The position numbers were made by a program, and so were the translations under genes. DNA of 60,824 nucleotides from Patescibacteria group bacterium (lineage in GTDB: Bacteria > Patescibacteriota > Patescibacteriia > UBA10025 > JAHIVO01), in the NCBI GenBank assembly GCA_034678405.1, contig JAXDBW010000066.1, positions 1 to 60,824 of the forward strand. Reading direction: 5' to 3'. The notes beneath the pieces were generated by a model that was given only the letters and a program-made list of their open reading frames with translations, did not search any database and had not been told where the DNA came from. Shown in pieces: positions 6,837 through 32,805 of this stretch (within the stretch, counting starts at the first letter, position 1; every line of letters starts with the position of its first letter).

Positions 6837-6845
6837 AGTACGAAA

Positions 6846-9327: not shown

Positions 9328-9356
9328 ATTTTAGCACATTTAAATTAGAAAGTCAA
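9328..9356 (-). promoter_or_regulatory. Sigma70-type promoter upstream of the pilN-like gene
   Basis: TTGACT-17 nt-TAAAAT with TGn. Confidence 0.65.
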
Positions 9357-9406
9357 GGATTTTACCCCTTACTTCCCGAGGTGCACTATTGGAAGCCGCT
9401 ACTCCC

Positions 9407-16500: not shown

Positions 16501-19500
16501 ATAGCCAGTACCCTGCTCCAGAGCCAGCGATGGAGCCGGATCACCGGAGGTCGTGAGGCTGATATCATCAAATCCAAGTCCATTGTCAGGGCGAACCCAG
16601 TTGGCGCCATTCCATTCGGTGTAGTACACCTCGTATACCCCTCCGCCGATGTCATGTTTGAAAGCAAGGTGCGGTTCATCTGACACATCGATAGCCAGAC
16701 TGGGAGAATTATCTCCTGCGCCGCTTCCCACCGTACCGGAAATATTGATCTGGGTGGCCAGTACGTCGGTCACGCCAGGTTCGTAGATGGCCCCGCTGAG
16801 TGATGTCCAGGCTCCAAATCCGTTATTTGCCTGCGGATTCCAGCGCAGATGCCATACTTCGCCGTTTTCTATCCAGGTAATATGGGGGTTGCCGTTGGTA
16901 TCAAATGCGAGTGTCGGCTCGATTGAGTCGGCCGCCGTCTGAGAGACATTATCCGCGCCGAGTGCCCCTCCGGCCGTCACCCACTCCCGGCCATCCCACC
17001 GCTGATAAAAAATATCCTTTGTCTGACCGCTGGCGGGCCATGATTCTGCCCACACCCGGTGCTCATGATTAAATGCATCGATCAGGACATTTGAATCCGC
17101 TGAATAATGGAAATTCGTTTGGGCCGGCACGTTTGCATTGAGCTGCGTGATGGAGCTCCACCGTTCCTGGGGGATGGTACGGCCTGATGACGCCCAGGCA
17201 TAACCATTGATCGGATTGATATCCCGTGTTTCCTCAAAGAACGTATTGACTCCCCAGTCCTGACCGACACCGCAGCTAAATCCATAACCAGTGAGAGTAT
17301 ACAGATTCAGGCAATTGGTGGAGATCCAGCCCAGGTTTGATGACCAGGCCCAGCCGACGATGTTATTTCGGACGAGGAAGAGTGACGCCTTTGGCCCGAA
17401 ACCGGTTCCGATACAGGTTTGCCCGGCGATGCAGCCTGCATTATCCGTCGGTCCGAGCGAGGGGCTGTTTGTAGCCGCATCGCCGTTGCGGGCTTTGATT
17501 TCGAAATCATATTTCCGGGATGGGTCCAGCGCGACCGTCACACCGTTGTTTTGACCCCAGTTAGTGTAGGTACCCCAGTACCCACTGGTATCCATGGCAC
17601 CGGTATTATCCACGCAGGCTGAACTCAGATCAATGCTGCCGTCATAGCGTACGTAGTGTCGGTATTCGACACCGCCTGATCCATCGTATTTCGTGACACA
17701 GACGGCATACTGCGTATCTGGATCACCGCCGCCTTTGGGATTATCGTCGACATCACGGATCGCGACCGATGCTGAGGTGCCGTCCTCGGCGCGGACAATG
17801 ATCGGTGCGGCGGGAATAGCGGCAAATGTGTAGCGGCATTCTCCGGGAGCTGCCGGCATACGGCCTCCCGAGTAATCCTGATTGCCATTACGCGACTGCG
17901 CCTGATAGCAGTAGTTGAAGTTCGGTGATAAGCCGGCATCAGTCTCAGTCGTATCGCTGCGGTACCCGGTAAACCCGTTTTCGGTGGCACTGTTGGGATG
18001 ACCAGTCGTCTCGAAAAATCGTATCCCCGAACCAGCCACACCGGTATTTGAAAACGTGCCTTCACTCGACCGGGCGGCGATGGAGATCTGGTTGGTGCCA
18101 TCGACCGTCACATCCACACCGGTCACGGTCTCGATGTCGAGGTGTGCCATGGCATACCCACCTTCCAGGAAATTCTTCGCGTCAATAGCGCGACCGACCT
18201 TGCCATTTGCATCTCGTGCCGCGACGGTGATATTACACCGTGTATTCGGTGTATAGCCGGCTGACCGATACTGATCTAACCCTGTGCTTCCGGTCGAAAA
18301 CGACTGATTGCTGCTGCACCCTGATCGGTTACCCTGGTAAGTCAACGGACCGGCCACCTGCGCTCCGTTGACCGGAGCGCTCCATGTCCAGTAGACGCGG
18401 TCCGTGGTCTGTACCGAATCGGTATTATTGAGACTCTGCGGTTCGCAGGGAGGCAGTGTGGCAGTCCAGTAGGTAAAGGTGCCGGGTCCTGATTTATTTT
18501 CTTCATTTCGCACTTCGATACGGTAATTCTGACGGGTATTAGTGGCACTACAGGCGACGTGCGCATCATCATCGTCCTCGAAATGTACCACTGTATCACC
18601 GGTCGCCCAGTTTTTCAGGTAGAAAAACTCCCCGGCCGATTGTAAAGATAATTTATCGTTCAGGTCGACGTTGGTCCAGGTCGATGTCTCATCACAGGTG
18701 CCCACACAATAGCTCAGCCGGTACTTTGTCTTTCCGAGATAGTCAGGAGGGGGACCGATAGGATTAGATGGATTGGTATCCAGGATCGTCACATCACAGT
18801 AATAATCATCGGCTGCGGCCGTGGCTCCATACACGTAATTACAGTCCACGCCGAGATTCGGCAGCAGCGCGTATGTCCAGACATCACCTGAATTGCTAGA
18901 CCACTGGCCACACCGCTCAGCAAAGCCGTTATTCGCATTGCCACTATCACATGACCGGCTCTGGAGGACGTGGTGAGTATTCGGTATCAGATTAGTCTGA
19001 TTCCAGCCAAATTTCAGCGTACCAATATTATTATAGCGCTGGGCGAATATAGTATCATACGCGTCATTGTCAGTGACGGGCTGCGCCGCTGTACCATTCG
19101 TGATATTCCAGAGGATATTGGTCGTACCGATGAGTGTAGCTACTGGCGCGCTCGGCTGACAGGGGGGCAGTGTGTCGCTTTTGACCGGGGAACTCGGAGA
19201 GGCAGCCGTGCCGCCGGCGTTGAGGGCGGCATACACCCGGAAGTACCGTGAACTGTTGCTGCAGGAGTTAATACGGAAACGGATCGTGGTATTGGGAGCA
19301 TGCAGAATCCACGGATCGGTCGAATTGTGAATTACGGTATTGGTATGGGGGGTATAGCCGGTCGGCAACGCACTCACCGTACTGAAATTATCTGTGGAGT
19401 ATTCTACCTTATAGTAGTACGGCGGCGATGGATTCTGAGTATCCTTGATCGTGAGGTCACAGTAGTATCCATCTGACACACCGTCGGCGTTTGCGCCCTC

Positions 19501-22500
19501 TTCTGTATCATATCCACACACCAGGTCAGGCGAGTCGGGGGGGAATAGCGGCGTGCAGAATTGCACCACGTTTGACATGGTGGCATACCCATCGCCGACC
19601 GAACCGTCGGGATTCTGCGACTGCGCCATGGTCACATAGCACGTGGCCGGGCTGAGACCCGTATAGGTCCAGCCCTGATCAGGCGAACCGTTTTGCCATC
19701 GAGGGCTATATGTTATCGGATAGCGATACCACTGGGGGGTCGCATACCGATCAGTCGCGCTATTTGGTCGTAAATACTGCCAGGTGCTACCATTGTCACA
19801 GACGGCGTTGCCCTCCGGGTCATCACAGATGGCCATGGCATACATCGTATGAACGGGATTTGTGTATTTGCTGTCAGTAGAGACGCTGCGGGAATTAAAG
19901 GGAGTGATATCCATCTTCAGGGTGACGGAATTACCCGTACTCGCGGCCACGGTCGGGCCTGACGGTAGGCGGTTCCTGTTATACGTATAGGTGCACTGGG
20001 TGGTAATGATAGACGGTTCATGCAAATACCCGGTCGGGGTGTCTGCTGCATATTCACAGAAGATGTGTTCTCGTCCCGGCCAGACACCCTGCGGTTCCGT
20101 ACCCTGGAGCGTGACAGAGCCGCTCATGGAAATACCAAACCCGAAATTCAGCAACCACTCACCCAGCGTATAGGTATGACAGGCACGCGGGTACGGGGAG
20201 GAGCTGCATGGATCAATCAGGTCCATGTATGGATCTCCACCAGAGTGGTACTGCCCGGCAAATTTACGGATATACCCGACACCGTTGACAAACGGTCCGA
20301 CGATGCCAAAGGCGTATTTCGTATAGCTAGGATTATTATGGGTAGCCGCCCACGCACTTGTGTTGCCATTACCCACCACCCGGAGCCTGTTCCAGGCAGG
20401 GGAATCCAGCGTCAAAACCGTATCCACAAACTGCGCGTGCGTCCAATCGGTATCGATATTGCTGTAGGGAGAATACCCCGACGGCACATCACTCTGGTAG
20501 GCCTGTGCCCGATACCAGTAGGGAGTGTCGGCCGTCAGGCCGGTATTGGTTACGACGCAGGTACCGCCGGTACCCGCCTTGGAGTTAGCAGAGCAGTCAT
20601 AGGTGCCGTTAACTCCGCCGCATGAGCCGGTCAGGCCGCTGCGGGCCGTACACACGTTCGTCCAGCTGCTCGTGCCATCCGGGGAGCGCTGCAGAACGAA
20701 AGACTCCTCTCCGATCGTGGTATCGGTTATTTCAACACGGAGCTGATTGTAGTCCTCAGAAAAACGAGGCTCGAGTACCTGGATGGTCGGCGCCGGCAGG
20801 TAGTGCACCTCGAGATAGGGCCACGGAGGAGTTCCTTCATACCCCCCTCCGATGATGGGCCAGGCTACCACCCCGATGTAGTATGCTCCAGCACGAACAT
20901 TTTCATCCACGAGATCGAGGATAAACTGGGTTTGCTCAGTAGAGGCAAACGGCGTATAGCCATTGATATAATTTGCCGGGACGACCACGGTGCGCTTACA
21001 CTGCGCGGCGCCAGCACCTGCACACGTCTCAGTATTTGACGGGGGCAGCGTCGACAGACTAGTCGCATACGGGAGCGAGCCGATGAGTTCCGCGGTGTCC
21101 ATGCGGTACCAGTTCGCCGCTAAATCATCATTGACATCGGTCCACATCGGCTGCTGATTATACAGCTCCCCATATATATTGAGCGTGCCACTGGTGAGAT
21201 CGCGCTCAGCGGTAGATAGCGTGGCTGTCTTGTAGAGATATAGATTCAGTGTAGCGCCGATGATCTGATCCTGCGTGACCGTGACATTCGTCGGCGAACC
21301 GGTGGTGAAACTCATATAATAGCGCTGTTCATCTTTGGTATAGCCAAAAATGCTCGTATCATAATATGACGTTCCTATAAATCTCCTTCCCTGATTCACT
21401 GCAAATTTACTAGTATTGAAGCCAAAAGTCGGCGGATCGGAGCTGCTTGCCGATGGATTATCTATTTCAATCTCCCCGTGCAGCTCGTTGCTCCAGTGTA
21501 TGCCATAAAACGTATTATCGATGGCCACTGGATAAGCTGCCTCGGCCAGCCAGGCCTGACCAGTCTCGTCTATCACCTTATGCAGTATCAGCGAATCATC
21601 CGTGCCCACCTCTAACTCATAGTGGATGCCGAAATTTTGCTTACCACTCTCCAGCTCATACATGACCGGCCGCGGAGCGGTAAACACTATATGTTTGGTG
21701 TCAGTATCGTGAAACGTGATGCTGCCGTCGTCATGCAATTTATAATATATATTATCCAGCGTAAGTGTCTGGGTATAGGTTGTCTCCGTCGGCATCTCCT
21801 CAGCGATAATCTCCTCTACCAGCCCGTCCGTCACCACTGTATATCGGACATCCATGCCCTCCAGGAGCGCGGGATAGGTTAGCGTACTGCCGTCAGGAAC
21901 GGGGGTGACACCGGCCGCACCAGCGATCGAAAAAGTGACAGACCGGTCCACGATCCGCGTCTTTTCTACCGGAGCAAACGCACTCGCCGAATCATCCTCA
22001 CCCTCCAGGCTGGACAGATCGAGGACTTGGTTCCCGGCTTCATCCTCGGTCATGGGCAGCTCGGGGAATTCGAGGTAGGTCTCAGTCTCGGGTGCGTTGA
22101 ACGTGATAACCGGTGCTGCGTCTGTCACCGGATGAAACGCGACTTCGGTCGTATTTGCGGTGTTCTCATACGCGCCATCACCCGCAGCCGCGGAGACGAC
22201 CGTGGTATCGATCGGCACATACTCGCCGTCATCGGTCAGATACTCGATTGGTACGGGATAGTAGCGACGGGTACGGGTACCGTCGTCATTACTGACATCC
22301 GTGTAGTTTTTACCCCGGATACGCATGGCGGTGTCATATACCGTCTCGGGATCTACCGGCGTCGGGGCCACGCTATGCGGATGGTCGGGGCCGAGTGTTG
22401 AATACGTGATGAGCAGCAGCCCAGCGCCCAGCACCCCGGCAGTCGCCAGGACGAAGAGGCTGCGGATAGTCCAATATGTGATGGGGATCTGTCTGCGTAT

Positions 22501-22503
22501 CAT
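10579..22503 (-). CDS. Giant (~3974 aa) multidomain surface/pilus-associated adhesin
   Basis: N-terminal TM, WapA/RHS-type N-terminal region, FN3-like repeats, GWAWS repeats, beta-propellers, Cys-rich modules, beta-helix-like C-terminus. Start set at MIRRQIP (ATGA overlap with upstream stop). Confidence 0.85.
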   Translation of the reverse strand: MIRRQIPITYWTIRSLFVLATAGVLGAGLLLITYSTLGPDHPHSVAPTPVDPETVYDTAMRIRGKNYTDVSNDDGTRTRRYYPVPIEYLTDDGEYVPIDTTVVSAAAGDGAYENTANTTEVAFHPVTDAAPVITFNAPETETYLEFPELPMTEDEAGNQVLDLSSLEGEDDSASAFAPVEKTRIVDRSVTFSIAGAAGVTPVPDGSTLTYPALLEGMDVRYTVVTDGLVEEIIAEEMPTETTYTQTLTLDNIYYKLHDDGSITFHDTDTKHIVFTAPRPVMYELESGKQNFGIHYELEVGTDDSLILHKVIDETGQAWLAEAAYPVAIDNTFYGIHWSNELHGEIEIDNPSASSSDPPTFGFNTSKFAVNQGRRFIGTSYYDTSIFGYTKDEQRYYMSFTTGSPTNVTVTQDQIIGATLNLYLYKTATLSTAERDLTSGTLNIYGELYNQQPMWTDVNDDLAANWYRMDTAELIGSLPYATSLSTLPPSNTETCAGAGAAQCKRTVVVPANYINGYTPFASTEQTQFILDLVDENVRAGAYYIGVVAWPIIGGGYEGTPPWPYLEVHYLPAPTIQVLEPRFSEDYNQLRVEITDTTIGEESFVLQRSPDGTSSWTNVCTARSGLTGSCGGVNGTYDCSANSKAGTGGTCVVTNTGLTADTPYWYRAQAYQSDVPSGYSPYSNIDTDWTHAQFVDTVLTLDSPAWNRLRVVGNGNTSAWAATHNNPSYTKYAFGIVGPFVNGVGYIRKFAGQYHSGGDPYMDLIDPCSSSPYPRACHTYTLGEWLLNFGFGISMSGSVTLQGTEPQGVWPGREHIFCEYAADTPTGYLHEPSIITTQCTYTYNRNRLPSGPTVAASTGNSVTLKMDITPFNSRSVSTDSKYTNPVHTMYAMAICDDPEGNAVCDNGSTWQYLRPNSATDRYATPQWYRYPITYSPRWQNGSPDQGWTYTGLSPATCYVTMAQSQNPDGSVGDGYATMSNVVQFCTPLFPPDSPDLVCGYDTEEGANADGVSDGYYCDLTIKDTQNPSPPYYYKVEYSTDNFSTVSALPTGYTPHTNTVIHNSTDPWILHAPNTTIRFRINSCSNSSRYFRVYAALNAGGTAASPSSPVKSDTLPPCQPSAPVATLIGTTNILWNITNGTAAQPVTDNDAYDTIFAQRYNNIGTLKFGWNQTNLIPNTHHVLQSRSCDSGNANNGFAERCGQWSSNSGDVWTYALLPNLGVDCNYVYGATAAADDYYCDVTILDTNPSNPIGPPPDYLGKTKYRLSYCVGTCDETSTWTNVDLNDKLSLQSAGEFFYLKNWATGDTVVHFEDDDDAHVACSATNTRQNYRIEVRNEENKSGPGTFTYWTATLPPCEPQSLNNTDSVQTTDRVYWTWSAPVNGAQVAGPLTYQGNRSGCSSNQSFSTGSTGLDQYRSAGYTPNTRCNITVAARDANGKVGRAIDAKNFLEGGYAMAHLDIETVTGVDVTVDGTNQISIAARSSEGTFSNTGVAGSGIRFFETTGHPNSATENGFTGYRSDTTETDAGLSPNFNYCYQAQSRNGNQDYSGGRMPAAPGECRYTFAAIPAAPIIVRAEDGTSASVAIRDVDDNPKGGGDPDTQYAVCVTKYDGSGGVEYRHYVRYDGSIDLSSACVDNTGAMDTSGYWGTYTNWGQNNGVTVALDPSRKYDFEIKARNGDAATNSPSLGPTDNAGCIAGQTCIGTGFGPKASLFLVRNNIVGWAWSSNLGWISTNCLNLYTLTGYGFSCGVGQDWGVNTFFEETRDINPINGYAWASSGRTIPQERWSSITQLNANVPAQTNFHYSADSNVLIDAFNHEHRVWAESWPASGQTKDIFYQRWDGREWVTAGGALGADNVSQTAADSIEPTLAFDTNGNPHITWIENGEVWHLRWNPQANNGFGAWTSLSGAIYEPGVTDVLATQINISGTVGSGAGDNSPSLAIDVSDEPHLAFKHDIGGGVYEVYYTEWNGANWVRPDNGLGFDDISLTTSGDPAPSLALEQGTGYPHIVWAGSGNVIVYRYWDGAGWTAEQTIQSDATNSPASPVIIMDSSNQPHVAFGEADGARYEWLDVYNACGLGASTWVTADCQLAQNSNANFNVNIGQTRYGITMRLDANAHPHVAGLLRGAPDSDQVINYRFWDPAANGGTGAWVTVSGDTGGSALEVSRQFGDDIRGVALAVEGNGDPHLVWGLQEADGTWNVYARYWDSGYGQSGAGWISFNTNVCANDTQRGCADNFDCNGAACIESAGSPPQTTDWTVQWGQVYPDMNSDVIDFAFDDVTVGGPYIWALVSGDADLLLQIDPDDFSVINTVDMAAVGASGLSAIIMAQNSLWLTATTTVAPLAADTPGVIFEINPATRAVDQTIIMDTCQDNIDRIDPTKYCDPVDIGYDPVSGDLWTANRENFDTDGDPDTHGNGYLEGSFSRFDAATGVELNCADATPGTTECQASHGNPASMDYDATTQSMWVGYESFYLSKLNPTNGSETVIDIDPYAYPLYGHVRIGALLYFPVTSYTTHGLGEFGTGGIMIVNPDTASIVDVVETGFSMYPQGISYDGRYIWLTDWGQAATCTNDRTIYCAGIHPTGQCSNDGTIDCNYDYQCGAGNICEQTACAAVGGGCTNPEARVFQYEASSLSLVDSYQVFPTSWHRSYDIISVDNTTYVSSRGYNGFAKLYLDTAEGNGFGYCFDQAGQNGQRYGECSDTGASCIEDADCNSGEHCIYFTCAHDSDCPNYVPTGADEQCKAIATASFSGITREVTGWARVLSLKEAGEALGFNDWGWIRLGGPYDDRQSQSGTYTLSGTEIDSQQFLGDPDVNPSDVQLYTLFGWGWQGALIPSARNNSLWLPHLQLSATGQAGADSTDQYHGSPSIVTDSIGDPHIAWTEYNETNSSYDIYYARMKRGAWESADGSAFVSGSTDPIATQVDVSNIDGVDALWPSLALTDSDIPYLAWQQGGTDIDTGEVYFSRWDNVTATWTTPTKVDDGGTPDLELDSNNNPHVTYRHGPANNSAIQYRWLNAGTWTDVNGGPDDVLEISARGGGIAHLFPKLELDGADIPHVVWVDGTQVYYEYWNGVAWSTADGTPGSLSVSAGIGGLLGIPENPQDPDLALYRDGRPGIVWRDPGYILYRQWDGVDWVTVSGDIDETNLWVNIHNDLNGELQRFADTGEAPQVVMDRDDQPHIVWGDDTTTTGDGDIYYRHWSRESDGGQGAWVTASGGYTLDPARNHIDDAHLAVAETPAGYSSSPSLALDQFSNPQVAWNEREYSGTVCSIDADCPSAYPRCFDSQAAPGTKYCVASNILYTKFTSGHTPTGIGWIEFIPAGALLGIPFIQTQYGDIYGGNDVSLAPPPAGSNQYTGTYLILSNGTIQGIAGNYASSQTGAPTSSLIEPGLDPLVPNYGLPFGPNALSKIDVDALITVTNGQNRFGHTVDTFATGDVDAELAALPHPDILDGRVYYYNGDATIDQDITISRGDVTAGTTGNGLIIIDGDLTINADIYYEPTTASSPLQDITEMPSAAFIVRGNVYVNSLVHDLSGVFVAIDADPNDSIESGVISTSRVQPVTHVIAQAADDTTVGLDGSVSGATTAMRFGQTATTTYRTLMRWQLDIPPGAEIRSAYIRTHSTGALSGSDYEARIYALDDPASVDFSNASAYNAGIGSSIVYDTQGWNSESVHTSPDIHSLVQRVVSDDQYASGDYFGVMLHEGNASPDDYKTLDAATAPTGSPAELVVEYSPRRTVYTVTDTADDVEAWGENAGDWAANPAADCLNVGWTSGSPYRSFFRFVPTAGYTEIPDNAEIIGAYLRLYASDCNADAGTFQLRQGLLDEVNISAGFGGVNPYTSIMSQSVAEVAEDIPAGAPINGALQQLTDSARLVQAWVNNSGYAPGHSIGIRLRRGGNETFAAAGQSRAYQQLNAEYHIDYQVPLHVSGLFIASGYNFDRKYTLNLEGAEQIMYDGRVVANTPPGLADFTKALPIYQRVTP

Positions 22504-24875
22504 AAGCCGCGACAAATAATGCTCTCTATCTGGCTGGTGTCGCCGATGACCACTCCTTTGACAAAGGTACCGTCGGTGGCACACTGCGCCGAACCACCGG
22601 TGACCGTGACCGTTTCATCACTGCCTGCCCACTGATTCTCAGGACTGCTGACATCATCACCGACCATGACATTTCCCCCGCGACAGCTGCCGCCAGGTAG
22701 GTCAGAACACGTCGCATCGGACGTACAGGGCCGATTGTAGTACGTCTGTCCGCCGGCCTGGCAGTAGCCGTGGCGCACTTCCACCGAACCGCTGAGATGC
22801 GTATGACCTATCTGGACTGTATTGCCCGTGGAACATACTTCCGTGCCGGGACAGTGCCAATCATAGAGGCACTGCTGGCTCGTCGTCACCGAACACGTAC
22901 CCGGGTTTGCCTTCAGCTGCACTACCGTCCCATAGTCCGGCTGGGTCCTCCCTTGGTTGACTCGTACTTTACTGAGGCGGAGTGGGCGATTGCTGCCATC
23001 AGCGCAGACACCCGCATCGGTACAGCCCGCCAGTACCCAGAGATACTGCCCGTCAAAGAGACTCGCGTTGGCTGCTGAATTTGTCTGCAGACCTGAAACC
23101 TGGATCGTCATCGTATCCGTCGCTGCATTAATCCGAAGGGCCCGACTCTCTCCGACGATCCACACGTAGGTACCATCAAATGTGAGTGCCCTCGGCTGAT
23201 CCGGAAGATCCATCGGATAACCAGGCATGATCAGGCCATCTGACATGCGCACTTTGCTGATTTGAATCTGACCCGTAATGGTCGGGTCAGACACGACCCA
23301 GAGGTAGACTCCGTCAGAGAGTGCTCGTGCGACATGGGGAAATCCAGCAGCATATCTATTTCGTACCGCACCAGTTGCCGGATCAATCTCGACTATGTTC
23401 TGTGGGTTTTGGATACAGATGAAACCAGCTCCGCATGACACATCGGCCCGGCAAACCGAGGCCGTCGTGGGTGCGCCGTCGCTGCATACGCTGGGTGTCA
23501 GCGCCCAGATCGAGTCGCTGGTGCTCAGCAGATCCACCGGCTGCAACAGATAGCCGGCATCATTGAGCCGGTTTTCATATTCTCCCGCTCCGCTCGTGCC
23601 CAGCGGGTACACCCCGACCTGGGTACAGTTTTGGTCAAATTTCGTCAGATCGCCGCCCCCGACATTCGCTGTCCAGATATATACTTGTCCGCGCTCAGTA
23701 CTGATACTCACCCGGGAGGGTATCTCCCCCCAGCCTGACCCGACCGGTCGATCCTCCGGTACGGTCGAGCAGCGCGCGATGACCCGGCCTGCCTCGGGAT
23801 CAAACTTCATAACGCTCGTATCCCCGGAACCCGAACTGACAAACCACAGGAAGCGACCGTCAAAGGCGATGTCGCGGATAGTCGGATCAATGCCCGATAC
23901 GTGATACCCCCCTACGACCTCACCATCAGCGGTCCGGATTTGGTACAGGTTATTGCCCGCCTGATCATCACTCTGGTTCATAACCCAGAGATAGGTGCCA
24001 TCGAATGTCATCCGTGGTATATATCCAGAGCCGGCTGATCCATCAGAAATCCGTGCGTTACTGAGCACGGCCGGAACTGCGAAATTACTACGCGATGCGG
24101 GGATGTATGTCTGGAGGAATCGCTCGGCAATAATATCTCCATTGACACCGAGTCGCCCCTGAAAATAAGCCGCCCAGCCATTATTTGTATTGCGCGCGTA
24201 GACAGCGGCGTTGACTGAGGACTGATTGGTCGCATAGATGCCGGTTCCGGTTTCGCTCTCGCCGCGCACACCAACCTGGCTGGCCGACTCACCGCGGACG
24301 GCCCAGCCACCCGTACCCGCATACAGGCCATAGACACCGGCCAATCCAGTCGCACCGCTATCAGCATAGATGCCCGTGCTATCAGCACTCGTCGCCCGGA
24401 CTGCCCGGCCGCTGACCGGCGCGGCCAGATCACCAGCCCGCAGCGTCCCCTCATCCACGACCAGCTGGTATCCTGCGGTGGGAGTCGCAGTTCCGACACC
24501 GACCCAGTCGTCAGCAGAGGATACATAGAGCGTATCCGTATCGACCAGCAGCTGATCGATATACATGGCTGGCGTGCTGACTTGGAGACCAGTGCCACGA
24601 ACGTCGAGCGGGCGCTGGGGATCGAAACTCAGGGACGTTTCTTCATTTGGATTGTATTCCGGATCGAGCTGCAGGTACCCCGATTTAGCCTGATTCTCAC
24701 CGCCGATGGTCAGCGGTACGGGAAATGCCTGTTGCGGGGGTGGCAACTGCGGCTCATTCCACTCAGCCGAGGCTATGCGTGCACCCATGGCACAGACGAC
24801 AGCAATAATCACGATGACAAATGCAACTCGTGAATAGATAAGGGAAGATAATTTTTTTATTTCGTGTTTATGCAT
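22500..24875 (-). CDS. Secreted beta-propeller/fibre-like protein, paralog 3
   Basis: Signal peptide, WNEPQLPPP...QAKSGYL motif, FDGxYLW repeats, Cys-rich modules, ends CRGL. Confidence 0.82.
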   Translation of the reverse strand: MHKHEIKKLSSLIYSRVAFVIVIIAVVCAMGARIASAEWNEPQLPPPQQAFPVPLTIGGENQAKSGYLQLDPEYNPNEETSLSFDPQRPLDVRGTGLQVSTPAMYIDQLLVDTDTLYVSSADDWVGVGTATPTAGYQLVVDEGTLRAGDLAAPVSGRAVRATSADSTGIYADSGATGLAGVYGLYAGTGGWAVRGESASQVGVRGESETGTGIYATNQSSVNAAVYARNTNNGWAAYFQGRLGVNGDIIAERFLQTYIPASRSNFAVPAVLSNARISDGSAGSGYIPRMTFDGTYLWVMNQSDDQAGNNLYQIRTADGEVVGGYHVSGIDPTIRDIAFDGRFLWFVSSGSGDTSVMKFDPEAGRVIARCSTVPEDRPVGSGWGEIPSRVSISTERGQVYIWTANVGGGDLTKFDQNCTQVGVYPLGTSGAGEYENRLNDAGYLLQPVDLLSTSDSIWALTPSVCSDGAPTTASVCRADVSCGAGFICIQNPQNIVEIDPATGAVRNRYAAGFPHVARALSDGVYLWVVSDPTITGQIQISKVRMSDGLIMPGYPMDLPDQPRALTFDGTYVWIVGESRALRINAATDTMTIQVSGLQTNSAANASLFDGQYLWVLAGCTDAGVCADGSNRPLRLSKVRVNQGRTQPDYGTVVQLKANPGTCSVTTSQQCLYDWHCPGTEVCSTGNTVQIGHTHLSGSVEVRHGYCQAGGQTYYNRPCTSDATCSDLPGGSCRGGNVMVGDDVSSPENQWAGSDETVTVTGGSAQCATDGTFVKGVVIGDTSQIESIICRGL

Positions 24876-24880
24876 ACTAT

Positions 24881-27800
24881 TTATAATGGTCGGCAATATA
24901 CCATCCCAGTAGCGCTATCAACACCCTTAGCAAATTCTCCATCAGGACACGACTCCTCGTAACTGACGACGCTGTCCGCATTTCCTCCCCAGACGTTCTG
25001 ATGCACGATGAGGTCATCTCCGATGATCAGCTGCCGTCCGACAGATGCGTCCCCGTAGGTAGCGACACTCCCCGACTGCGTCCTGCCCGGAATCGTCGAT
25101 TGCAGTCCGAGCACCCCCTCATAATCGGTCGTGCCCTGTCCTGTCCCGGCATAGTATTGGTGCAATATATATGAATCACAATTATTCGTCGTCTGATTGA
25201 TCCAGATACTGGCGCCATCAAACGCCAGACTATTTGGATTGCAGTAGCCGGCATAGTATATGCTCTCGATAAATTGGCTCGTGCCGGCATTGATGCGGCT
25301 CAGGTGGCCGGCGCTCGGCCGTGCTTGCTCAGAAATATCGTTTGGCCCGCTGCACCAAGGATCGGGAGTCCCACTGCATCCAGGAGAACCGGCGGCACCA
25401 TCCCAGTCGCACCGACCATTACCGTCATTGTCGATTCCATCCGAACATTCTGCATCGGTCGATGTGCCAAATACCGCACTGCTCTGCTGCTCGTGCGTAT
25501 CCCAGTCATCCGCGCAGTCAGGATCGCTGCCGGCATCGGTCAGGCCGTCGCCATCATTATCAATCCCGTCATCACATTCGCGGGTGCCGGCCTCACGCTC
25601 CTGAACGGCCCAGATATGTGTCCCGTCATAAGTCAGCGCACTGACATGGCTGCCGCGTTCTGAGCACGAACCGCCGCCGGTGCACTGGGTATTGGTCGTA
25701 CATTCGAGACGATCCCGATCCCCACCAGAGCAGACGCCCGGCTCATTATATAGACTGATCGTATCTACGAGCTCTCCATCGGCGAGACGGAATTTGTACA
25801 GGCTATGTCCGTCAGCATCACGGTTGTCGGTCCCGATCCAGAGATACGTCCCGTCGGAGAGGATTGAGTTGAGATTATTAGTCGCATTGTACGCGTCAGC
25901 AATAGTATACGTGTCGAGGATCGCCCCGGTGTCACGGTCCAGGCGGGAAAAAGTATTCACCAACCCCCGGCGGGTTACCCAGATGTTAGTCCCGTCATAT
26001 GCCAGATAGTATGGGTTATCCGGCACACTATATTGGGCCACTGCAGTACATACGCCGGACGAGCAGGTGCGCGTATCAACCCGCCGGACGATGTTGTGAT
26101 TGTCATCACTGATCCAGAGATAGCGACCGTCATATATCATATCTGCCCCACTGGCCAGGCCGCCCGTTTGATAGTCATAATCGCCGATCAGCGTGCCATC
26201 GCGTGCATTGAGCTGGGCCAACTCGACGCCACTCCGTTCCTGGTGGGTCACCCACATGGAGCTGCCATCATAAGTAATATGCTCGGGCTGCCAATTTGCG
26301 TAATAATCACCGATCTTCGTCCCGTCGCTGGCGCGAAATTTGCTGACGGTATTGCCGGCACTGTTGGTAGACCAGACATTCGCCCCATCAAATGCCAGAT
26401 CCTCAGAATACGATCCTTTCGGAATGTAGGTGATCGTTTCATACGGCGCAGTCATGGTGCTACGGCTGACCAAACTTGAGGTCCCGTGCGCTCCCCAGAT
26501 GTACGGTGATGCTCCCGATGTCCGGTCGATGGTAAAATCACCTCCTCCATCTGGCAGTTCGTACTGGTTGATGATCGTACCGGCGGTATCGAGTTTGAAT
26601 AGCTGCCAGTAGTTCATCCCCCAGATAAACGGACCGCCGTCCGTCGCATCGTCATAGCGGATGCGCGTCACACCGGCGCCTGCCGCATAGTGCGTAAATG
26701 TCCCGGTCACCGGATCCAGCCGGGCGATGCCATCGCCGCCCTGGTGTTTAGTCCAGTGTGGATATTTACCTATCCAGATAGCATCATCACCATAGGTGAT
26801 CGACTGTGGTTGCTGGGACGGGCCGGGACAAAAGACCTGCTGATTTGTGGTATTGGTCGGATCATTACCATCGAACCGAGCAACCGCTTCTCCGAAATAC
26901 TGATACGGGCGGCTATCGATAAGACCACCAAATGAAACCCAGATAGTTGGATTGCTCGGTGCGGCCGCATTTGGCTGGATGGTTATGCCCGTTGGGCCAT
27001 TTGGTGTGCGCGGGGCAACCCGTTCGTCGGCGGCTGTCCAGGTGGCGCCGGCATTCGTACAGTCGGTGTAGTTTGTCAGGCCTGCGTTGCTGCAGGATCC
27101 CGACGTCATAGGATTGACTGCTTGGTTGTTGATGCACTCCGGATCTCCCAGCGCGGCATTCCATGTGCCACCATTGTCCTGACAACTACTTTGAGTATGA
27201 TAGGTCGGATCACTGCACACCCCTGCGTCAGTGAGGCCGTCGCCGTCATTGTCTAGGCCATCCTCACAGAGGCTCTGGTCATATGACAGACAGGACTGTC
27301 CGCTCGTGGGATTTAGTTTGAAATTGAGATACGAGCCGTCGGCTGGCCGAAGCCGGCTTATAGAGTAATCCCAATCGTTACCCGAGTCATTGACAGTCCA
27401 GATATACGGCCCACCGCTGGAATAATTATCATAGACGAGGGCAGCCGCTCCGTCATAGGCGCCACCGGCATGAGACCCAATCATGAAATGAGTAGCGGTA
27501 TGAGTGGGATCATTGAGATCCACGCGAGATACTCCTCGATTATCATCCCAATGGTTGGCTATCCAGACATACCCATTGGCCAGGATCATTTCTGATATGG
27601 AATGAGCGGCATTTCCGCCACTGTCGACGAGGCGGAATTCTTCGCTGATCGAACCGGTCTCAGGATCGAGTAAGTAAAAATACGGCTCAGAATCCCAGCT
27701 GGCACTGATGTGTGTCCAGAGCCAGGTACCATCATACAGGATGTGCTGCGGCTCAATGCGCTCACTGCCGATGATCTCGCGCATTTCCCATCCGATGGTA

Positions 27801-28606
27801 TAGGGATACTGTGACTGCTGCAGACGGTTGGGGACAAACGCACGGGCCAGCACCTCGTCACTACCGATGACTTGTTTGGTGAAATACCCCGCCCAGGCAC
27901 CGAGGCCCTCTGCCTGCGCATAAATTCCCGCTACCTTACTGACACCCGAATTCCGATCAAGTGCGGCTGCCGTGCTGCCGACGACGGCCGAACCGGAGAT
28001 GCTCTGAGCGCGGATACCGATACCACTCGTGTGCAGGCCATATACACCAATGCTACCCGCGCCGATACCGCGACCGAGGACAGAGGCGACGGTGTCAGCC
28101 TGCGTCTCTCCGAGGACGCCATAGCTCAGCTCACTACCGGACACCAGGGCCGAGCCGGAAACACCAGTCGCGTCGTCGCCGATCACAACCCCGCCCGCCA
28201 CCTCGAGGAGTGTATCGGGCGATGCGGTTCTGACACCGATCCGATGGTCATCACCACTGACATAGAGCGTATCGTTGTCCACTCCTAGGGTGCCATTTGG
28301 TGTGACTATGAAATCATTGATATAGGTATCGCGCGACCCTCGGACGGTCAGCTGATACTGAAAACTCGGCAATTCACCATATGGATTATAAAACGGGTCA
28401 AGCAGCAGACGGCCTTTTTTCGCCTGGTTGTCTGGACTCGTATTCAGCGGCGCAAACACATTGCCGGCGGGCGGCTGGGCGGCGGGAGGATTCCAAGCCG
28501 CGCTGACATCTCGTCCGATGAGCAGGACGGATATCACCCCGAGGAGTACGAGCGACCATATGACAGGTACAGTCCAGCGGTTTATTTTGTAGGTATGATG
28601 GGACAT
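24881..28606 (-). CDS. Secreted beta-propeller/fibre-like protein, paralog 2
   Basis: Signal peptide, WNPPAAQPPAGN...QAKKGRL motif, YDGxxxW repeats, CxDGxDNDGxG repeats, ends CRPL. Confidence 0.82.
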   Translation of the reverse strand: MSHHTYKINRWTVPVIWSLVLLGVISVLLIGRDVSAAWNPPAAQPPAGNVFAPLNTSPDNQAKKGRLLLDPFYNPYGELPSFQYQLTVRGSRDTYINDFIVTPNGTLGVDNDTLYVSGDDHRIGVRTASPDTLLEVAGGVVIGDDATGVSGSALVSGSELSYGVLGETQADTVASVLGRGIGAGSIGVYGLHTSGIGIRAQSISGSAVVGSTAAALDRNSGVSKVAGIYAQAEGLGAWAGYFTKQVIGSDEVLARAFVPNRLQQSQYPYTIGWEMREIIGSERIEPQHILYDGTWLWTHISASWDSEPYFYLLDPETGSISEEFRLVDSGGNAAHSISEMILANGYVWIANHWDDNRGVSRVDLNDPTHTATHFMIGSHAGGAYDGAAALVYDNYSSGGPYIWTVNDSGNDWDYSISRLRPADGSYLNFKLNPTSGQSCLSYDQSLCEDGLDNDGDGLTDAGVCSDPTYHTQSSCQDNGGTWNAALGDPECINNQAVNPMTSGSCSNAGLTNYTDCTNAGATWTAADERVAPRTPNGPTGITIQPNAAAPSNPTIWVSFGGLIDSRPYQYFGEAVARFDGNDPTNTTNQQVFCPGPSQQPQSITYGDDAIWIGKYPHWTKHQGGDGIARLDPVTGTFTHYAAGAGVTRIRYDDATDGGPFIWGMNYWQLFKLDTAGTIINQYELPDGGGDFTIDRTSGASPYIWGAHGTSSLVSRSTMTAPYETITYIPKGSYSEDLAFDGANVWSTNSAGNTVSKFRASDGTKIGDYYANWQPEHITYDGSSMWVTHQERSGVELAQLNARDGTLIGDYDYQTGGLASGADMIYDGRYLWISDDNHNIVRRVDTRTCSSGVCTAVAQYSVPDNPYYLAYDGTNIWVTRRGLVNTFSRLDRDTGAILDTYTIADAYNATNNLNSILSDGTYLWIGTDNRDADGHSLYKFRLADGELVDTISLYNEPGVCSGGDRDRLECTTNTQCTGGGSCSERGSHVSALTYDGTHIWAVQEREAGTRECDDGIDNDGDGLTDAGSDPDCADDWDTHEQQSSAVFGTSTDAECSDGIDNDGNGRCDWDGAAGSPGCSGTPDPWCSGPNDISEQARPSAGHLSRINAGTSQFIESIYYAGYCNPNSLAFDGASIWINQTTNNCDSYILHQYYAGTGQGTTDYEGVLGLQSTIPGRTQSGSVATYGDASVGRQLIIGDDLIVHQNVWGGNADSVVSYEESCPDGEFAKGVDSATGMVYCRPL

Positions 28607-28617
28607 AGTGTTGCGGG

Positions 28618-31600
28618 TCACAGTGAACGGCATTCTAGTTTCATGATCTCTCCAAGGAAATTTTTCTTAATGTCCATGAGGAAATTACCCTCGCTGCAGG
28701 TGTAGGTACCGGCCGGGAGAGGATCGTTGCGATAGACAGCGGCGGGCACCCCGGTGCCGACATAGTAGTATCCGTCCCCGGTGATGGCCATCGAGTTAAT
28801 GCTGCTAGTACCCGCTATTTCCTGCGTGAGCGTCCAGTCGGCGCCCCCCACCGATCGGTAAATCCTCCCGTGTGAGACGCCAGCAACAATTTCGTGCGTA
28901 CCGATGAAGAACACGTCATTGTACTCGATGATGGTATGCACATCTGAATCGGTAGTATCCACCGTATTGATATCTCCGACTTGGGTCCAAGTAAACCCAT
29001 CCCGCGAACGAAACACATATCCCTCGGGAGCAGTGCCCGTCCCCGAAGCGGCATCCGAACCGGTGATGGCGTAGAGATATCCGTCACTGGCCGCGTAGAG
29101 ATCATACACACTATGTACTCCCGGCACCGGTTGTATCTGCTGCCATGTCACCCCACCGTCGTTGCTCCGGCTCACGATATTATGCAGTTTTGACGCGGCA
29201 TAGATATACCCATCAAATACTTCGAGCGAGTCGATATCACCACCCGGTACATCGCTCGTCGTCGTCCATGTGGCGCCGCCGTTATTTGATTTATAGAGCG
29301 CACTCCGAGTGTAAATGCCGAGATAGATGTTCCAGTCGCCCCCCTCCTGATATTCTTCTATTTCATAGATCCATGCATTCGCAAAGGGCGCTGTGGTTGC
29401 TGTCCACCCCACACCGTCAGTGTAGTACGATGCGTATCCCTGGTCGTCGCCCGCACCAGGGGTCGATTCGTCCTGCGAGGTGACAGCCCAGACCGTACCA
29501 GTATGATCCTCGATCAGTTTCCAGACCCACATCAGCCCCGTCGCATTTCCGCCAGGAAGCCGGCCGGTATCTTCCCAGGTCTGCCCATTATCATTTGATC
29601 TGAAGACGTGACCATTGTATGTCACACCGGCATACATGTATCCGTCACTCGCGGCAAGCATGGTGTCGGTCCGTGAGCCAGCTTCGGGAAAGGCAGTCGT
29701 CTGACTCCACCCGTTACTGACGAAGAGGTCACGTTCATCACCCCAGACATTCTCCGGACTGTCTAGATCCCCGTCGATACGATACTGGTCGTCGACACGT
29801 GTATCACCGGTGCTGGCATAGCTACCCACCTGTCCCGTGAGGCTACCCGATGACTGGAGGAGGAGCCCATCGGCCAGCGACTGCTGGTCATATCCCATCC
29901 CGGTAAAATACGAGGTAATACCCGCAAATCCCGATATCCCTGTGCCACTGGTCCAGAGAAACGATCCGTCAGAAATGATCCCCTGCGGACTGAAGTTCAG
30001 AGAAATATCTTGGCGGACGGTGGGCGCCGCTGCCGTCAGCCTGGTGAGACTATCGGCCGTGGCATTGGCGGTCCAGATATGAGCGCCGTCAAACACGATA
30101 TCGGTCGGCTCGGTATCAGTCGCGTAATCTCCCTGGACCTGTGGCACCGCGAAACAGCCGCCGCTGCCGGCACAGTCTGCATCCGTGCTGCAGCTCACTG
30201 TCTGATCCTGTGAACATACTTTTGCATTTGTCAGAAAAAACGCGGTCACAGAATTTGATTCACTGTTTGCTACCCAATAATGAAAATTATCAAATACAAT
30301 ATCAGCCGGACTCGCCCCAGCGAGGTTCGTCCAGAGCACCGGCTCCTCGGTGGCGGGATTAATATTAACCACCGCGTTGTCTGCCGGTGACACTGCCCAG
30401 AGGTAGCTACCGTTGTACATGAGCGAATCAAGTGAGTCCGGCGCGCTCGTAATCGGGATACGACCCAGCTCAGTACAAGTGTTGCTGACATGCACGACGC
30501 TCCCGGTACCGCGTGCCGTCACCCAGTATGAACTCCCGTCAAATACAATAGACGATGGTGCATCGCCTGCCTCAAGCACCAAAGAACACGAGGTGGCGCC
30601 CGTGTAGGGATCTAGTTTGCGGATCAGATCATCTCCGGCGACGGTAACCCAGATTGCATTGCTATCAGAGATCACATCCGTCGGATCGGTTCCGACTGTC
30701 ACGGCAAAGGCGGTCAGTCCGTCTGCGGCACGAATTTTGTAGAGCTGGTCATCGCGAGTCGCCCAGAGGTAGGTGCCATCATGATACCGCACGACGAAAT
30801 CAGTCTGACCATAATCAAAAAAGTGATCAATCTCTCCGGTGCTCGCCGTAATACCGCTGATACTGCTGCCATACCAGCTCGGCACCCAGACGGTATCGAT
30901 GGTATCGTCATAGAGCACGTCCTGGTATGCTGCCGCGCCGTTGGTCGGATAATGGGCGATGGTAGCCGGATCGTCTGCGGGAAACATATCCAGCGATCCT
31001 GAGAGACCATTTGATGTTGCCACCCAGATGCGCGCGCCGTCATAGATGATGGCCTGTGGACCGAGTGTCCCCGAGTATACGCCGATCGGATCAGATACCG
31101 TACCCGCACCAATATCAATATAGTATGCTCCGTCATTGGCATTATTATTATCATCGCTGGCAATCCAGAGATACTGCCGATCTGAGTCGTACGCCAGGTC
31201 AACCGGACCAGGTACGTCGTATCGTGTGTATTCCGAACTCTCAATCGTCTGGTCACCATTTCCTGGGTCGGCAGCATCGATCTGGTACACGGCATCATTA
31301 TCATAGAGCGCAATCCAGATACTTCCAGTCGTCGTATCATAGGCGAGAGACCGCACCCCCTGCGCATAGGGCGGGTCAGGCGTTTCATCGTGGAGTATTT
31401 CGTAGCGCGCGACCGGCTCCCAGTGACGCGGATCAGTATCATAATCAGCGATACTGAATTTCAGCAATCGATCATGATAATCACGGCCAAAGCACACGCC
31501 ACCAGGCTGTAATACCCAGAGAATATCCGCATCCGTAGGATCCTGTATGAGGTACCCAAGCGGGCAAGTGTCATGCCCGTCTGTATCAACTACTTGTCGA

Positions 31601-32649
31601 CTCTCGGCTAGTCCCTCGGCGAGATCAATCCTGCCGATCTGCCCGGGATATGTCAGGGCGGCCTGCCAAATATACCCATGTACAGAATCATATATCATAT
31701 CCTGAGTCGGGCCGAGATTATACCTCGTGAGGACCCTTCCGGTTCCTGTATCAACCTGCAGTACATCAGTATGATCAGCGCCGCCCTGTCCGACCCACAG
31801 CCACTGGCCATCACTCACCACGCGCTGGGGAAAATACTCACGGAAATATTGATCCGCCATCTGGCCGTCAGTATATCCGAGGAACGACTGACGCTGCGTA
31901 GTAGGCAGAACTTTGGCGCCACTGACAATTTCCGAGGACTCGGCCAGTCCGGAGAAGTAGCCGGACCAGAGATTGCTGGCACTCGTATTCGCCCCATAGA
32001 GAGCGATGCCCCGCGTGCTATAGGCACCGACTGAGGAATGTGCCGGCGGATCCTCCGTCGTCATCCCCTCCAGTGCCGTGCTGAGCGTGCTGACGGCCCA
32101 GATACCATAGCCGAGCGGATTAGCGCTCACACCTTTAATACCTGCCAACGGCGGCGGGCCATAGGTTGTTCCAACGATTGACTCGGCATCACTGCTGAGC
32201 GCCTGCGTACCTACTTCATCAATGCCGGTTACGAGGACGTTGCCGGTGCTCACTTCCAGCGCAGCCTGGTCATCTCCTAGGCAGGGGCCGATACATACAT
32301 CGTGCGTGACCGGGTCGACATAGAGCGTTTGGGTGGACTGACTGACACTGAGTACATTATCCACAAAAGCATTGGACGACTGCGCCCCCTGACCCAGGAC
32401 CTCGAGCTGATAGGTAAATGGCGAGCTTAGATCATCACTGCCAAGCCGCAGCGCGCCACTTTTTGTCTGATTCGTATCATCAATCCGTAAATATTCAGGC
32501 AGGTTGTCCTCCGGAGGAGCGGCACTGGGCGTCAGCACTGCCTTTGCCTGATGTACCGTCAAGTAGCAAAAGACCCCTAACATAATAAAAAATAGGCTAA
32601 AATAAGCCCATTTTTCAAAATGTAACACAGTTTTTCTTTTGCTTTTCAC
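28618..32649 (-). CDS. Secreted beta-propeller/fibre-like protein, paralog 1, with BNR/Asp-box domain
   Basis: GTG start after GGGGGAGG; PSAAPPEDN...QTKSGAL motif; DGxxxW repeats; SxDxGxTW Asp-boxes; ends CRSL. Confidence 0.82.
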   Translation of the reverse strand: MKSKRKTVLHFEKWAYFSLFFIMLGVFCYLTVHQAKAVLTPSAAPPEDNLPEYLRIDDTNQTKSGALRLGSDDLSSPFTYQLEVLGQGAQSSNAFVDNVLSVSQSTQTLYVDPVTHDVCIGPCLGDDQAALEVSTGNVLVTGIDEVGTQALSSDAESIVGTTYGPPPLAGIKGVSANPLGYGIWAVSTLSTALEGMTTEDPPAHSSVGAYSTRGIALYGANTSASNLWSGYFSGLAESSEIVSGAKVLPTTQRQSFLGYTDGQMADQYFREYFPQRVVSDGQWLWVGQGGADHTDVLQVDTGTGRVLTRYNLGPTQDMIYDSVHGYIWQAALTYPGQIGRIDLAEGLAESRQVVDTDGHDTCPLGYLIQDPTDADILWVLQPGGVCFGRDYHDRLLKFSIADYDTDPRHWEPVARYEILHDETPDPPYAQGVRSLAYDTTTGSIWIALYDNDAVYQIDAADPGNGDQTIESSEYTRYDVPGPVDLAYDSDRQYLWIASDDNNNANDGAYYIDIGAGTVSDPIGVYSGTLGPQAIIYDGARIWVATSNGLSGSLDMFPADDPATIAHYPTNGAAAYQDVLYDDTIDTVWVPSWYGSSISGITASTGEIDHFFDYGQTDFVVRYHDGTYLWATRDDQLYKIRAADGLTAFAVTVGTDPTDVISDSNAIWVTVAGDDLIRKLDPYTGATSCSLVLEAGDAPSSIVFDGSSYWVTARGTGSVVHVSNTCTELGRIPITSAPDSLDSLMYNGSYLWAVSPADNAVVNINPATEEPVLWTNLAGASPADIVFDNFHYWVANSESNSVTAFFLTNAKVCSQDQTVSCSTDADCAGSGGCFAVPQVQGDYATDTEPTDIVFDGAHIWTANATADSLTRLTAAAPTVRQDISLNFSPQGIISDGSFLWTSGTGISGFAGITSYFTGMGYDQQSLADGLLLQSSGSLTGQVGSYASTGDTRVDDQYRIDGDLDSPENVWGDERDLFVSNGWSQTTAFPEAGSRTDTMLAASDGYMYAGVTYNGHVFRSNDNGQTWEDTGRLPGGNATGLMWVWKLIEDHTGTVWAVTSQDESTPGAGDDQGYASYYTDGVGWTATTAPFANAWIYEIEEYQEGGDWNIYLGIYTRSALYKSNNGGATWTTTSDVPGGDIDSLEVFDGYIYAASKLHNIVSRSNDGGVTWQQIQPVPGVHSVYDLYAASDGYLYAITGSDAASGTGTAPEGYVFRSRDGFTWTQVGDINTVDTTDSDVHTIIEYNDVFFIGTHEIVAGVSHGRIYRSVGGADWTLTQEIAGTSSINSMAITGDGYYYVGTGVPAAVYRNDPLPAGTYTCSEGNFLMDIKKNFLGEIMKLECRSL

Positions 32650-32776: not shown

Positions 32777-32805
32777 ATAGTAACATAATTTACCGATAAA
32801 GTCAA
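32777..32805 (-). promoter_or_regulatory. Sigma70-type promoter of the adhesin/pil operon
   Basis: TTGACT-17 nt-TACTAT with TGn. Confidence 0.6.

Follow-up and report, generated by a model that had tools for sequence, protein, structure and literature searches.

Three tandem secreted paralogs at the head of a type IV pilus operon in a Patescibacteria group bacterium: a candidate three-chain, phage-fibre-like stalk with different heads

What is built by three neighbouring genes whose secreted products share both of their ends and differ in the middle, and why do such genes lead a type IV pilus operon? The question is raised by a stretch of 60,824 nucleotides, here called the window (contig JAXDBW010000066.1, positions 1 to 60,824 of the forward strand), from the genome of a Patescibacteria group bacterium (assembly GCA_034678405.1; 1.23 Mb, 72 contigs). 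In this window three tandem paralogs, termed A, B and C, are followed by a gene for a giant protein and by pilus genes. On balance, and with some reserve, we favour the reading that their products form a secreted three-chain, phage-fibre-like stalk with three heads, produced in matching amounts along with the giant protein and the pilus and acting as a host-binding device. The three open reading frames (ORFs) are as follows.

28618..32649, minus strand: gene A, position-1 subunit, an ORF of 1343 residues
24881..28633, minus strand: gene B, position-2 subunit, an ORF of 1250 residues with its likely start at M10 (28606)
22500..24896, minus strand: gene C, position-3 subunit, an ORF of 798 residues with its likely start at M8 (24875)

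The start chosen for gene B, M10, is nearly invariant among relatives, and gene C read from M8 gives 791 residues, the form present in the database. Gene A starts with GTG (32649), 7 nucleotides behind a GGAGG Shine-Dalgarno sequence. An earlier note on this DNA had placed A, B and C at the head of an operon containing the giant gene and pilM, and the junctions bear this out: 11 nucleotides separate the stop of A from the ATG of B and 5 nucleotides the stop of B from the ATG of C, the giant gene starts within the stop codon of C, the two overlapping as ATGA (-4 nucleotides), and the PilM product matches PF11104 at 5.8e-43. The tight A/B/C junctions suggest equimolar synthesis.

The three-way alignment gave 25-28% identity overall, with columns invariant among A, B and C at every one of the motifs that the note had listed as shared, and in the same order. 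These columns lie in the leader (P41, P45 and P46, then N60, Q61, K63, G65, L67 and L69), in the stalk (T108, L109, Y110 and V111 of TLYV; W228, Y231 and F232 of WxxYF) and near the C-terminus (N967, W969 and G970 of NxWG; C1340, R1341 and L1343 of CRxL). The gene anatomy is read directly from this alignment, the payloads sitting between shared N-terminal and C-terminal parts. Each N-terminus opens with basic residues, continues with a hydrophobic run of about 20 residues and closes with an A-x-A site (AKA before V in A, VSA before A in B and ASA before E in C), so that all three, as read by eye from the sequence, appear to carry Sec-type signal peptides. Behind the signal peptide lies a Gly-rich N-module of about 230 residues, made up of a leader (W-x-x-P-x3-PP ... 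N-Q-x-K-x-G-x-L-x-L), one 'TLYV..VGIGT' unit and about 110 residues of roughly 10-residue Gly-rich repeats that close with W-x-G-Y-F.

32539..32649, minus strand: putative Sec-type signal peptide of A, residues 1-37, with AKA before V (sequence inspection)
31864..32538, minus strand: leader and Gly-rich stalk module of A, residues 38-262 (alignment, complex prediction)
27809..28498, minus strand: leader and Gly-rich stalk module of B, residues 46-275 (alignment, complex prediction)
24081..24767, minus strand: leader and Gly-rich stalk module of C, residues 44-272 (alignment, monomer and complex predictions)

No Pfam match to the N_methyl, or class III prepilin, signal (PF07963) was obtained in A, B or C, and the pilin of the operon matches it at 3.3e-10. 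Sequence and profile searches of Pfam, NCBIfam and the PDB returned no family covering the N-module or the C-terminal frame. Within its own genome (2,898 six-frame ORFs) each N-module matches only the other two, with E=2e-25 for B and C and 6e-10 for A and C. The leader (about 35 residues; W-x-E-P-x3-PP..P-L-N..Q-x-K-x-G-x-L), found at window positions 24612-24767, 28346-28501 and 32398-32538, behaves as a portable element. Two further observations concern the stalk module in relatives. One protein (P0010) has Laminin_G_3 and DUF2341 inserted after the TLYV unit, so whole domains can enter the stalk module of one chain, and in one genus (G004 and G015; L032 and L044) the A-class protein has an insert of about 155 residues between TLYV and WxxYF.

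The shared C-terminal part aligns as Y-Y-x-G-x-G ... L-Q ... Q-x-G-S ... G-D-L ... N-x-W-G-G ... C-x2-G-x-F-x-K-G ... C-R-x-L-stop. It is uninterrupted in B and split by a payload in A.

29695..29910, minus strand: first part of the C-terminal frame of A (YFTGMG...QxGS...NVWG), residues 914-985 (alignment, motifs)
28621..28719, minus strand: terminal Cys hairpin of A ending CRSL, residues 1311-1343 (alignment)
24884..25156, minus strand: uninterrupted C-terminal frame of B (YYAGTG...QSGS...NVWGG...C-x17-CRPL), residues 1160-1250 (alignment, AlphaFold2 monomer)

Among 80 database proteins with the N-module directly after a signal peptide, 75 end in C-x-x-[L/I], 61 of the 80 in CRxL; the remaining five are fragments or carry a 7-residue C-terminal extension. 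Because the N-module matches stay within the trio and the CRxL ends recur in these database proteins, the likeness of A, B and C is not due to chance. When the C-terminal frame of B was modelled as a monomer with AlphaFold2 from a 21-row alignment, its first 59 residues were disordered (predicted local distance difference test, pLDDT, 39-45), while the last 40 or so residues, with two Cys and CRPL, gave a three-stranded sheet (pLDDT 74-90). This sheet had no meaningful structural match; VIA-align returned one trivial hit (a defensin, Z 2.2). A VMO-I-like beta-prism, to which each of three chains would contribute its terminal hairpin as a blade, was also considered; it found no support in the tests and was dropped. 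The suggestion in the note that CRxL may be an assembly or sorting signal likewise drew no support from the analyses made here. Pfam gave no match in A, B or C to the YadA-type membrane anchor of trimeric autotransporter adhesins, and the end is a Cys hairpin of 33 residues.

Between these conserved ends the payloads differ as the note had stated, with Asp-boxes in A, DGxDNDG repeats in B and Cys clusters in C.

29911..31863, minus strand: NHL/YVTN-like propeller blades of A, residues 263-913 (11 'DGxxxW' motifs; fold by analogy with the C model)
28720..29694, minus strand: candidate BNR/Asp-box propeller of A, residues 986-1310, inserted within the C-terminal frame (Pfam and NCBIfam matches below cut-off)
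25157..27808, minus strand: propeller blades and Cys-rich acidic DGxDNDG repeats of B, residues 276-1159 (motifs; NF033662)
22947..24080, minus strand: predicted seven-bladed beta-propeller of C, residues 273-650 (AlphaFold2 pLDDT 80-93; Foldseek; PDB profile matches)
22503..22946, minus strand: Cys-rich inserts and C-terminal frame of C ending CRGL, residues 651-798 (motifs, AlphaFold2)

The insert of A holds six Asp-box-like motifs at residues 1018-1273 by pattern search, and the region scores 18-19 bits against the Pfam BNR, BNR_2 and Sortilin-Vps10 models, whose cut-offs are 27-33. Three DGxDNDGxG repeats occur in B, where the NCBIfam 'acidic double-disulfide repeat' NF033662 scores 43.7 bits against a cut-off of 41 over three stretches. 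The Cys clusters of C lie at residues 625-738, and its propeller, searched with Foldseek as part of the whole-C model, matched only generic NHL/YVTN/lactonase propeller folds (2z2n, 3vgz and 1l0q). Heads differ from genome to genome in both kind and number, and the fibre-like termini are the conserved parts. In one relative (G012; L021/L022) the payload of the position-2 gene, of B class, shares a segment of about 300 residues with residues 3036-3325 of the giant protein of the window (75 bits), which suggests that head domains are swapped between the fibre and the giant protein.

Structure prediction was then the source of evidence on assembly. In the AlphaFold2 monomer of C, made from a 26-row alignment, residues 39-273 stayed at pLDDT 25-48 compared with 80-93 in the propeller. 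The N-modules of A (38-262), B (45-275) and C (44-272), each with the alignment of its own class and unpaired, were co-folded with ESMFold2, and gave interaction scores (interaction prediction score from aligned errors, ipSAE) of 0.92, 0.91 and 0.76, about 1300-1400 contacts and a pLDDT of 83-88 across partners. Controls with an unrelated partner scored 0.00 and 0.00, and replacement of B by an unrelated protein lowered the score to 0.43. The mark set for this tool is reached by 116 of 157 solved complexes and by 2 of 215 mismatched pairs, a calibration that excludes user-made alignments such as those used here. When the 25 best contacts were placed on the alignment, C met B at a median offset of -10 from the homologous residue and A at a median offset of +8. 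This stagger is about one 10-residue repeat and is therefore the pattern expected of a parallel three-chain beta-helix. For a parallel trimer of the phage-fibre type, then, there is an ipSAE of 0.91 against 0.43 for the best control together with a one-repeat stagger, in a prediction that came without coordinates. The pass is unlikely to be the memory of a solved complex, because a sequence search of the PDB found no relative of the N-modules. The phage repeat protein P0099 has no relative in the PDB either. Trimerisation and chain register are thus predicted, and the models support a trimeric, intertwined stalk formed by the N-modules. The note had set monomeric folding of the termini against its proposal: the stalk proves to be the N-terminal module, which adopts no fold as a monomer, and only the last 40 or so residues with CRxL do fold alone.

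The kinship of this module points to phages. At the TLYV unit the match to phrog_5906 is weak (C, E=3.5e-5; B, 1.2e-3; A, no match), and among 26 distant database matches that repeat the unit, phrog_5906 was found in 24 and tail-fibre PHROGs in 23. Of 319 candidate stretches on viral contigs, 231 code for relatives that cover profile positions ~46-211 (at most ~10-211), and the complete module with its leader was in none of the viral contigs examined. Five viral ORFs were tested, of which three matched tail-fibre PHROGs, one phrog_5906 and one only a family of unknown function. The ESM Atlas gave only scores below 0.9 (viral clusters, the N-terminus of T4 gp9/10, and HylP), which serve as leads only. 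Because of the phrog_5906 and tail-fibre PHROG matches and the relatives on viral contigs, the stalk core appears to be of the phage tail-fibre kind, set within a conserved cellular context. No phage or tailocin genes lie beside A, B and C in the window; the genes are chromosomal and belong to a conserved pilus operon.

Conservation of the triplet was followed with a profile of the three modules, which found 425 proteins at E<=1e-3, 59 of them at E<=1e-30, among 1.84 billion cluster representatives. In genome searches 15 of 16 relatives of the same family carried the module, as did the single genome searched from a second family in this order (G018), which also has three copies. A third family had it in none of four genomes at E<=1e-10; three of these four encode three divergent secreted proteins with a similar leader in the same slot, the fourth being broken by a contig end. 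Three ORFs in tandem were seen in 12 of these 16 same-family genomes, the remaining four being cut by contig ends or 81-88% complete, and no genome among the relatives searched has more than three module ORFs. All ten relatives examined have the order A-B-C-giant-PilM-PilN-PilO-p304-PilB-response regulator-PilC in a single direction, and at the same ten loci LemA and a small gene in opposite orientation precede A. A copy number of three and linkage to pil genes, whose lack of conservation the note had named as telling against its proposal, are hence conserved. When 44 N-modules from 15 genomes were placed in a maximum-likelihood tree, gene positions 1, 2 and 3 formed three groups with one change each (support 100/99, 97/85 and 79/34). 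Since the tree groups strictly by gene position, the triplication predates the split of at least two families, with the order unchanged since then. The N-terminal and C-terminal classes were concordant in 63 of 77 database proteins. A comparison of stalk lengths among A, B and C within genomes, made as a test for a heterotrimer, had no power, since the lengths hardly vary and the motif patterns missed many rows. The best explanation of these data is that A, B and C are anciently diverged, non-redundant subunits.

Whether these subunits wind into one fibre has to be set against several points that count against it. Phage tail fibres, those with this repeat included, are as a rule homotrimers. 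The set folded was A+B+C alone, so A:B:C and homotrimers are not separated; A and C with B replaced by an unrelated protein still reached 0.43 with 1100 contacts, and the chains therefore pair promiscuously in silico, the modules accepting partners beyond the full set. The pLDDT rise from monomer to complex is not a clean comparison, as the monomer came from AlphaFold2, the complex from ESMFold2 and the alignments were self-made and unpaired. In other families of the class (L064, L071 and L075) this slot is occupied by one or two leader-bearing proteins, and the module therefore does not depend on three chains to function. Stalk length from TLYV to WxxYF steadily differs by class (A ~116, B ~124, C ~119), and gene order is the sole ground on which the fibre is tied to the pilus. 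Several of these points would suit three separate homotrimeric fibres, each gene supplying its own head type and three kinds of fibre being displayed, an arrangement that we hold to be unlikely though deserving serious attention. Independent fibres would, however, be expected to come and go, whereas exactly three copies with one-to-one orthology and fixed order are kept in at least two families with no gains or clear losses; a score of 0.91 was reached by the full set and one of 0.43 by the two-chain control, and the tight junctions again speak for equimolar synthesis. Because of this fixed triplication, the one-to-one orthology and the tight coupling, a heterotrimer, probably of 1:1:1 A:B:C stoichiometry, is favoured over three homotrimers. 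As to the phage-fibre-like three-chain stalk proposed in the note, the predicted intertwining of the N-modules and the phage kinship speak for it, and its heterotrimeric make-up goes beyond what the predictions tell apart. A precedent for three consecutive fibre genes yielding a co-purifying heterotrimer is given by a virophage (PMC12724248).

The chains could also act singly, as pilus-associated adhesins of the PilY1 type in which the N-module serves for docking or forms a beta-helix as a monomer, the predicted trimer being an artefact of repeats, since predictors can lay repeat-rich chains side by side. Like PilY1, the products are propeller proteins with a Sec-type signal that are encoded in a type IV pilus operon, and the saccharibacterial PilX2 is proposed to work in this way (PMC12206443). 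Yet the N-module stayed at low pLDDT alone despite its 26-row alignment and rose, with a regular stagger, in the complex; unrelated partners scored 0.00 and no PilY1/PilC propeller family appeared in the Pfam matches, so that we regard monomers as improbable. Secreted enzymes or cargo, for instance glycan-degrading propellers pushed out in the manner of type II secretion by a pilus-like machine, would fit an operon with an extension ATPase and no retraction ATPase of its own, a weak likeness of the BNR region of A to the glycosylhydrolase family NF045728 (34.5 bits against a cut-off of 175), and the virginiamycin B lyase and lactonase propellers that top the fold matches of C. Every enzyme-family match is, however, far under its cut-off, no catalytic motif came to light, with no search aimed at one, and it is the fibre-like termini that are conserved while the putative catalytic heads vary in number and kind, which leaves this explanation little credit. 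Still less can be said for a prophage or tailocin fibre remnant lying by chance beside the pil genes: the kinship of the stalk core to viral tail-fibre segments and the G+C of the four-gene block, higher than that of its flanks, would be expected of one, but the LemA-pilM position is constant in 10 of 10 relatives and in more distant families, other phage genes are lacking, the proteins appear to have Sec signal peptides, and no viral contig has the whole module with its leader. We consider it the most improbable of the explanations weighed.

Under the three-chain reading that we favour, A, B and C would be exported by Sec, after which their Gly-rich N-terminal modules of about 190 residues would wind around each other into a parallel, staggered three-chain beta-helical stalk, most likely with one copy of each chain. 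Every chain would then leave the stalk for its own head, NHL/YVTN propellers being common to all three and supplemented by a BNR propeller in A, by acidic disulfide repeats in B and by Cys knots in C. The last portion of each chain would be the second shared segment, followed by a small hairpin that is closed by a disulfide and bears C-R-x-L as its free carboxy terminus. Fibre, giant surface protein and type IV pilus machine would come from one transcript in equal amounts, and the fibre would serve as a multi-headed adhesin of the pilus apparatus for binding host cells, a role suggested by this genomic context. A bolder version, which we think possible but doubtful, holds that an obligate A:B:C fibre derived from phage repeats is built into the type IV pilus apparatus of Kerfeldbacteria-like Patescibacteria, docked by its leader to the pilus or to the giant core, with three heads for combinatorial host recognition. 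The leader would in that case be a general attach-to-pilus-machine signal for non-pilin cargo in the class.

The genes downstream of C complete the operon.

10579..22503, minus strand: giant secreted protein of 4001 residues, with a conserved core at residues ~3325-3570 and 3940-4001
1741..10573, minus strand: type IV pilus genes for PilM, a PilN-like protein of 596 residues, a PilO-like protein, a 304-residue protein, the PilB ATPase, a response regulator, PilC and a pilin (Pfam, synteny)

The PilB-type ATPase (T2SSE) matches at 1.2e-127, PilC is T2SSF, and the pilin bears an N-methylation motif and is followed by a glycosyltransferase gene. PilB is the extension ATPase of the operon; additional pilus loci and the PilT-like ATPase genes of this genome lie on other contigs, and none of those loci has A, B, C and the giant gene, which are present at this one only. 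The 35-residue leader by itself was found in 21 of 119 other genomes sampled from the class, where the proteins that bear it range from 127 to 3847 residues, and six of the 12 leader loci examined lie in the slot between LemA and a homolog of the giant core with PilM. At these six loci the LemA-to-PilM slot holds one, two or three leader-bearing proteins. Proteins of 600-790 residues with the giant core alone adjoin PilM in other families (L068, L074 and L075) and share the ending '...DGR...N.PPG...LP...'; because of these core-only proteins, the giant is taken to be an expanded form of a core pilus-operon protein. Two relatives of the same genus (G001, L013; G002, L015) have an extra ORF of 490-579 residues between C and the giant gene, which resembles residues ~72-198 of the giant and is without counterpart in the window. 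Public records with a Patescibacteria-type locus (L046, L049 and L057) are titled 'uncultured Gammaproteobacteria bacterium' and look mislabelled.

Transcription of the operon may begin at a site located by consensus match.

32777..32805, minus strand: promoter-like site TTGACT-17-TACTAT with a TG extension, 5' of gene A (consensus match only)

G+C is 0.54-0.58 in the block of fibre and giant genes (window 22001-32000) against 0.47-0.50 in both flanks, which may reflect products rich in Gly, Ala, Asp and Thr rather than foreign origin. Over the fibre genes, contigs of a second study (X5 and X6) are nearly the same as the window and show 0-7 differences in each piece of 600-1400 bases. From 32158 onward, that is, over the start of gene A, the intergenic region and a divergent small gene (window 32158-34000), they differ at 37 of about 990 positions and have a 5-base deletion at 32806; the step at 32158 looks like a recombination boundary. 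Elsewhere in the window, positions 44023-52942 (minus strand) contain a type IV secretion-like cluster. Its products are an SLT transglycosylase fused to a type IV secretion system (T4SS)-pilin domain, another protein of the T4SS-pilin kind, a P-loop ATPase resembling TraG/VirB4 (48564-50453) and a member of the PrgI family (51145-51576).

Little is understood of the way in which Patescibacteria recognise their hosts and stay attached to them, and the locus offers a concrete, conserved candidate: a pilus machine, a giant protein and a putative three-chain fibre with exchangeable heads. Genetic data on host recognition concern, in the sections of the paper drawn on here, only pilins and one propeller protein in Saccharibacteria (PMC12206443). 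One lineage, Kerfeldbacteria, is reported to be unusually firmly attached to its host (PMC7906910); a relative bearing the module (L050) is titled Candidatus Kerfeldbacteria, and a link to attachment strength is speculative. If the three-chain reading is true, phage fibre parts would have been recruited by a cell into a bacterial parallel of the C1q-type design, and the layout of termini as frame and heads as payload could guide host prediction from metagenomes.

No description of the triplet was found in the open literature on Patescibacteria or candidate phyla radiation (CPR) type IV pili, large surface proteins, adhesins, PilY1 and Kerfeldbacteria, and comparison is made with systems that resemble it in part. 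PilY1/PilC of Pseudomonas, Neisseria and Myxococcus are, like A, B and C, large proteins with a Sec-type signal and a beta-propeller encoded in a type IV pilus gene cluster, and PilY1 is held to be mounted on the pilus, where it would bind the target. The PilY1/PilC propeller family is absent from the Pfam matches of A, B and C at E<=0.1, and PilY1 is a single chain docked on minor pilins, whereas the three paralogs A, B and C share a fibre-like N-module for which trimer formation is predicted. In the sections of the paper drawn on here, PilX2 of Nanosynbacter lyticus TM7x is described as a seven-bladed propeller without a PilD-type signal, encoded in a pilus locus and proposed to be a host-binding adhesin (PMC12206443). 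Thus PilX2 (Saccharibacteria T4P-2) shares with A, B and C the Patescibacteria, the pilus locus and the propeller; it differs as a single gene of another class, and is set apart by a description which, in those sections, mentions no stalk, triplet or CRxL. In function PilY1-type adhesins and PilX2 are the nearest analogs, but the data do not support placing A, B and C in either family.

Phage fibres of the phrog_5906 and phrog_9942 types have the same 'DTDTLYVD..VGIGT..P..L.V.G' unit, Gly-rich strands and predicted parallel, intertwined trimers. They repeat the unit many times, have no signal peptide and often end in a chaperone-like C-terminus; in contrast, A, B and C have one unit, putative Sec signals, a class-wide leader, propeller heads and a CRxL hairpin, and belong to a chromosomal pilus operon. 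For the virophage DSLV2, three consecutive tail genes are reported to give a 1:1:1 heterotrimer by AlphaFold3 comparison and co-purification, a tail of about 58 kDa in total whose gp37-tip-like chains share one head (PMC12724248). While the DSLV2 tail is viral, A, B and C are cellular, with chains of 80-145 kDa and a separate head on each, and are known here from genes and predictions. Complement C1q and heterotrimeric collagens likewise arise from three tandem paralogs, each of which supplies a globular head and a single strand of the stalk that they have in common. They are eukaryotic, wind as a collagen triple helix and have no known homology with A, B and C, whose three chains, if they wind as predicted, would arrive at a similar design from phage-like repeats.

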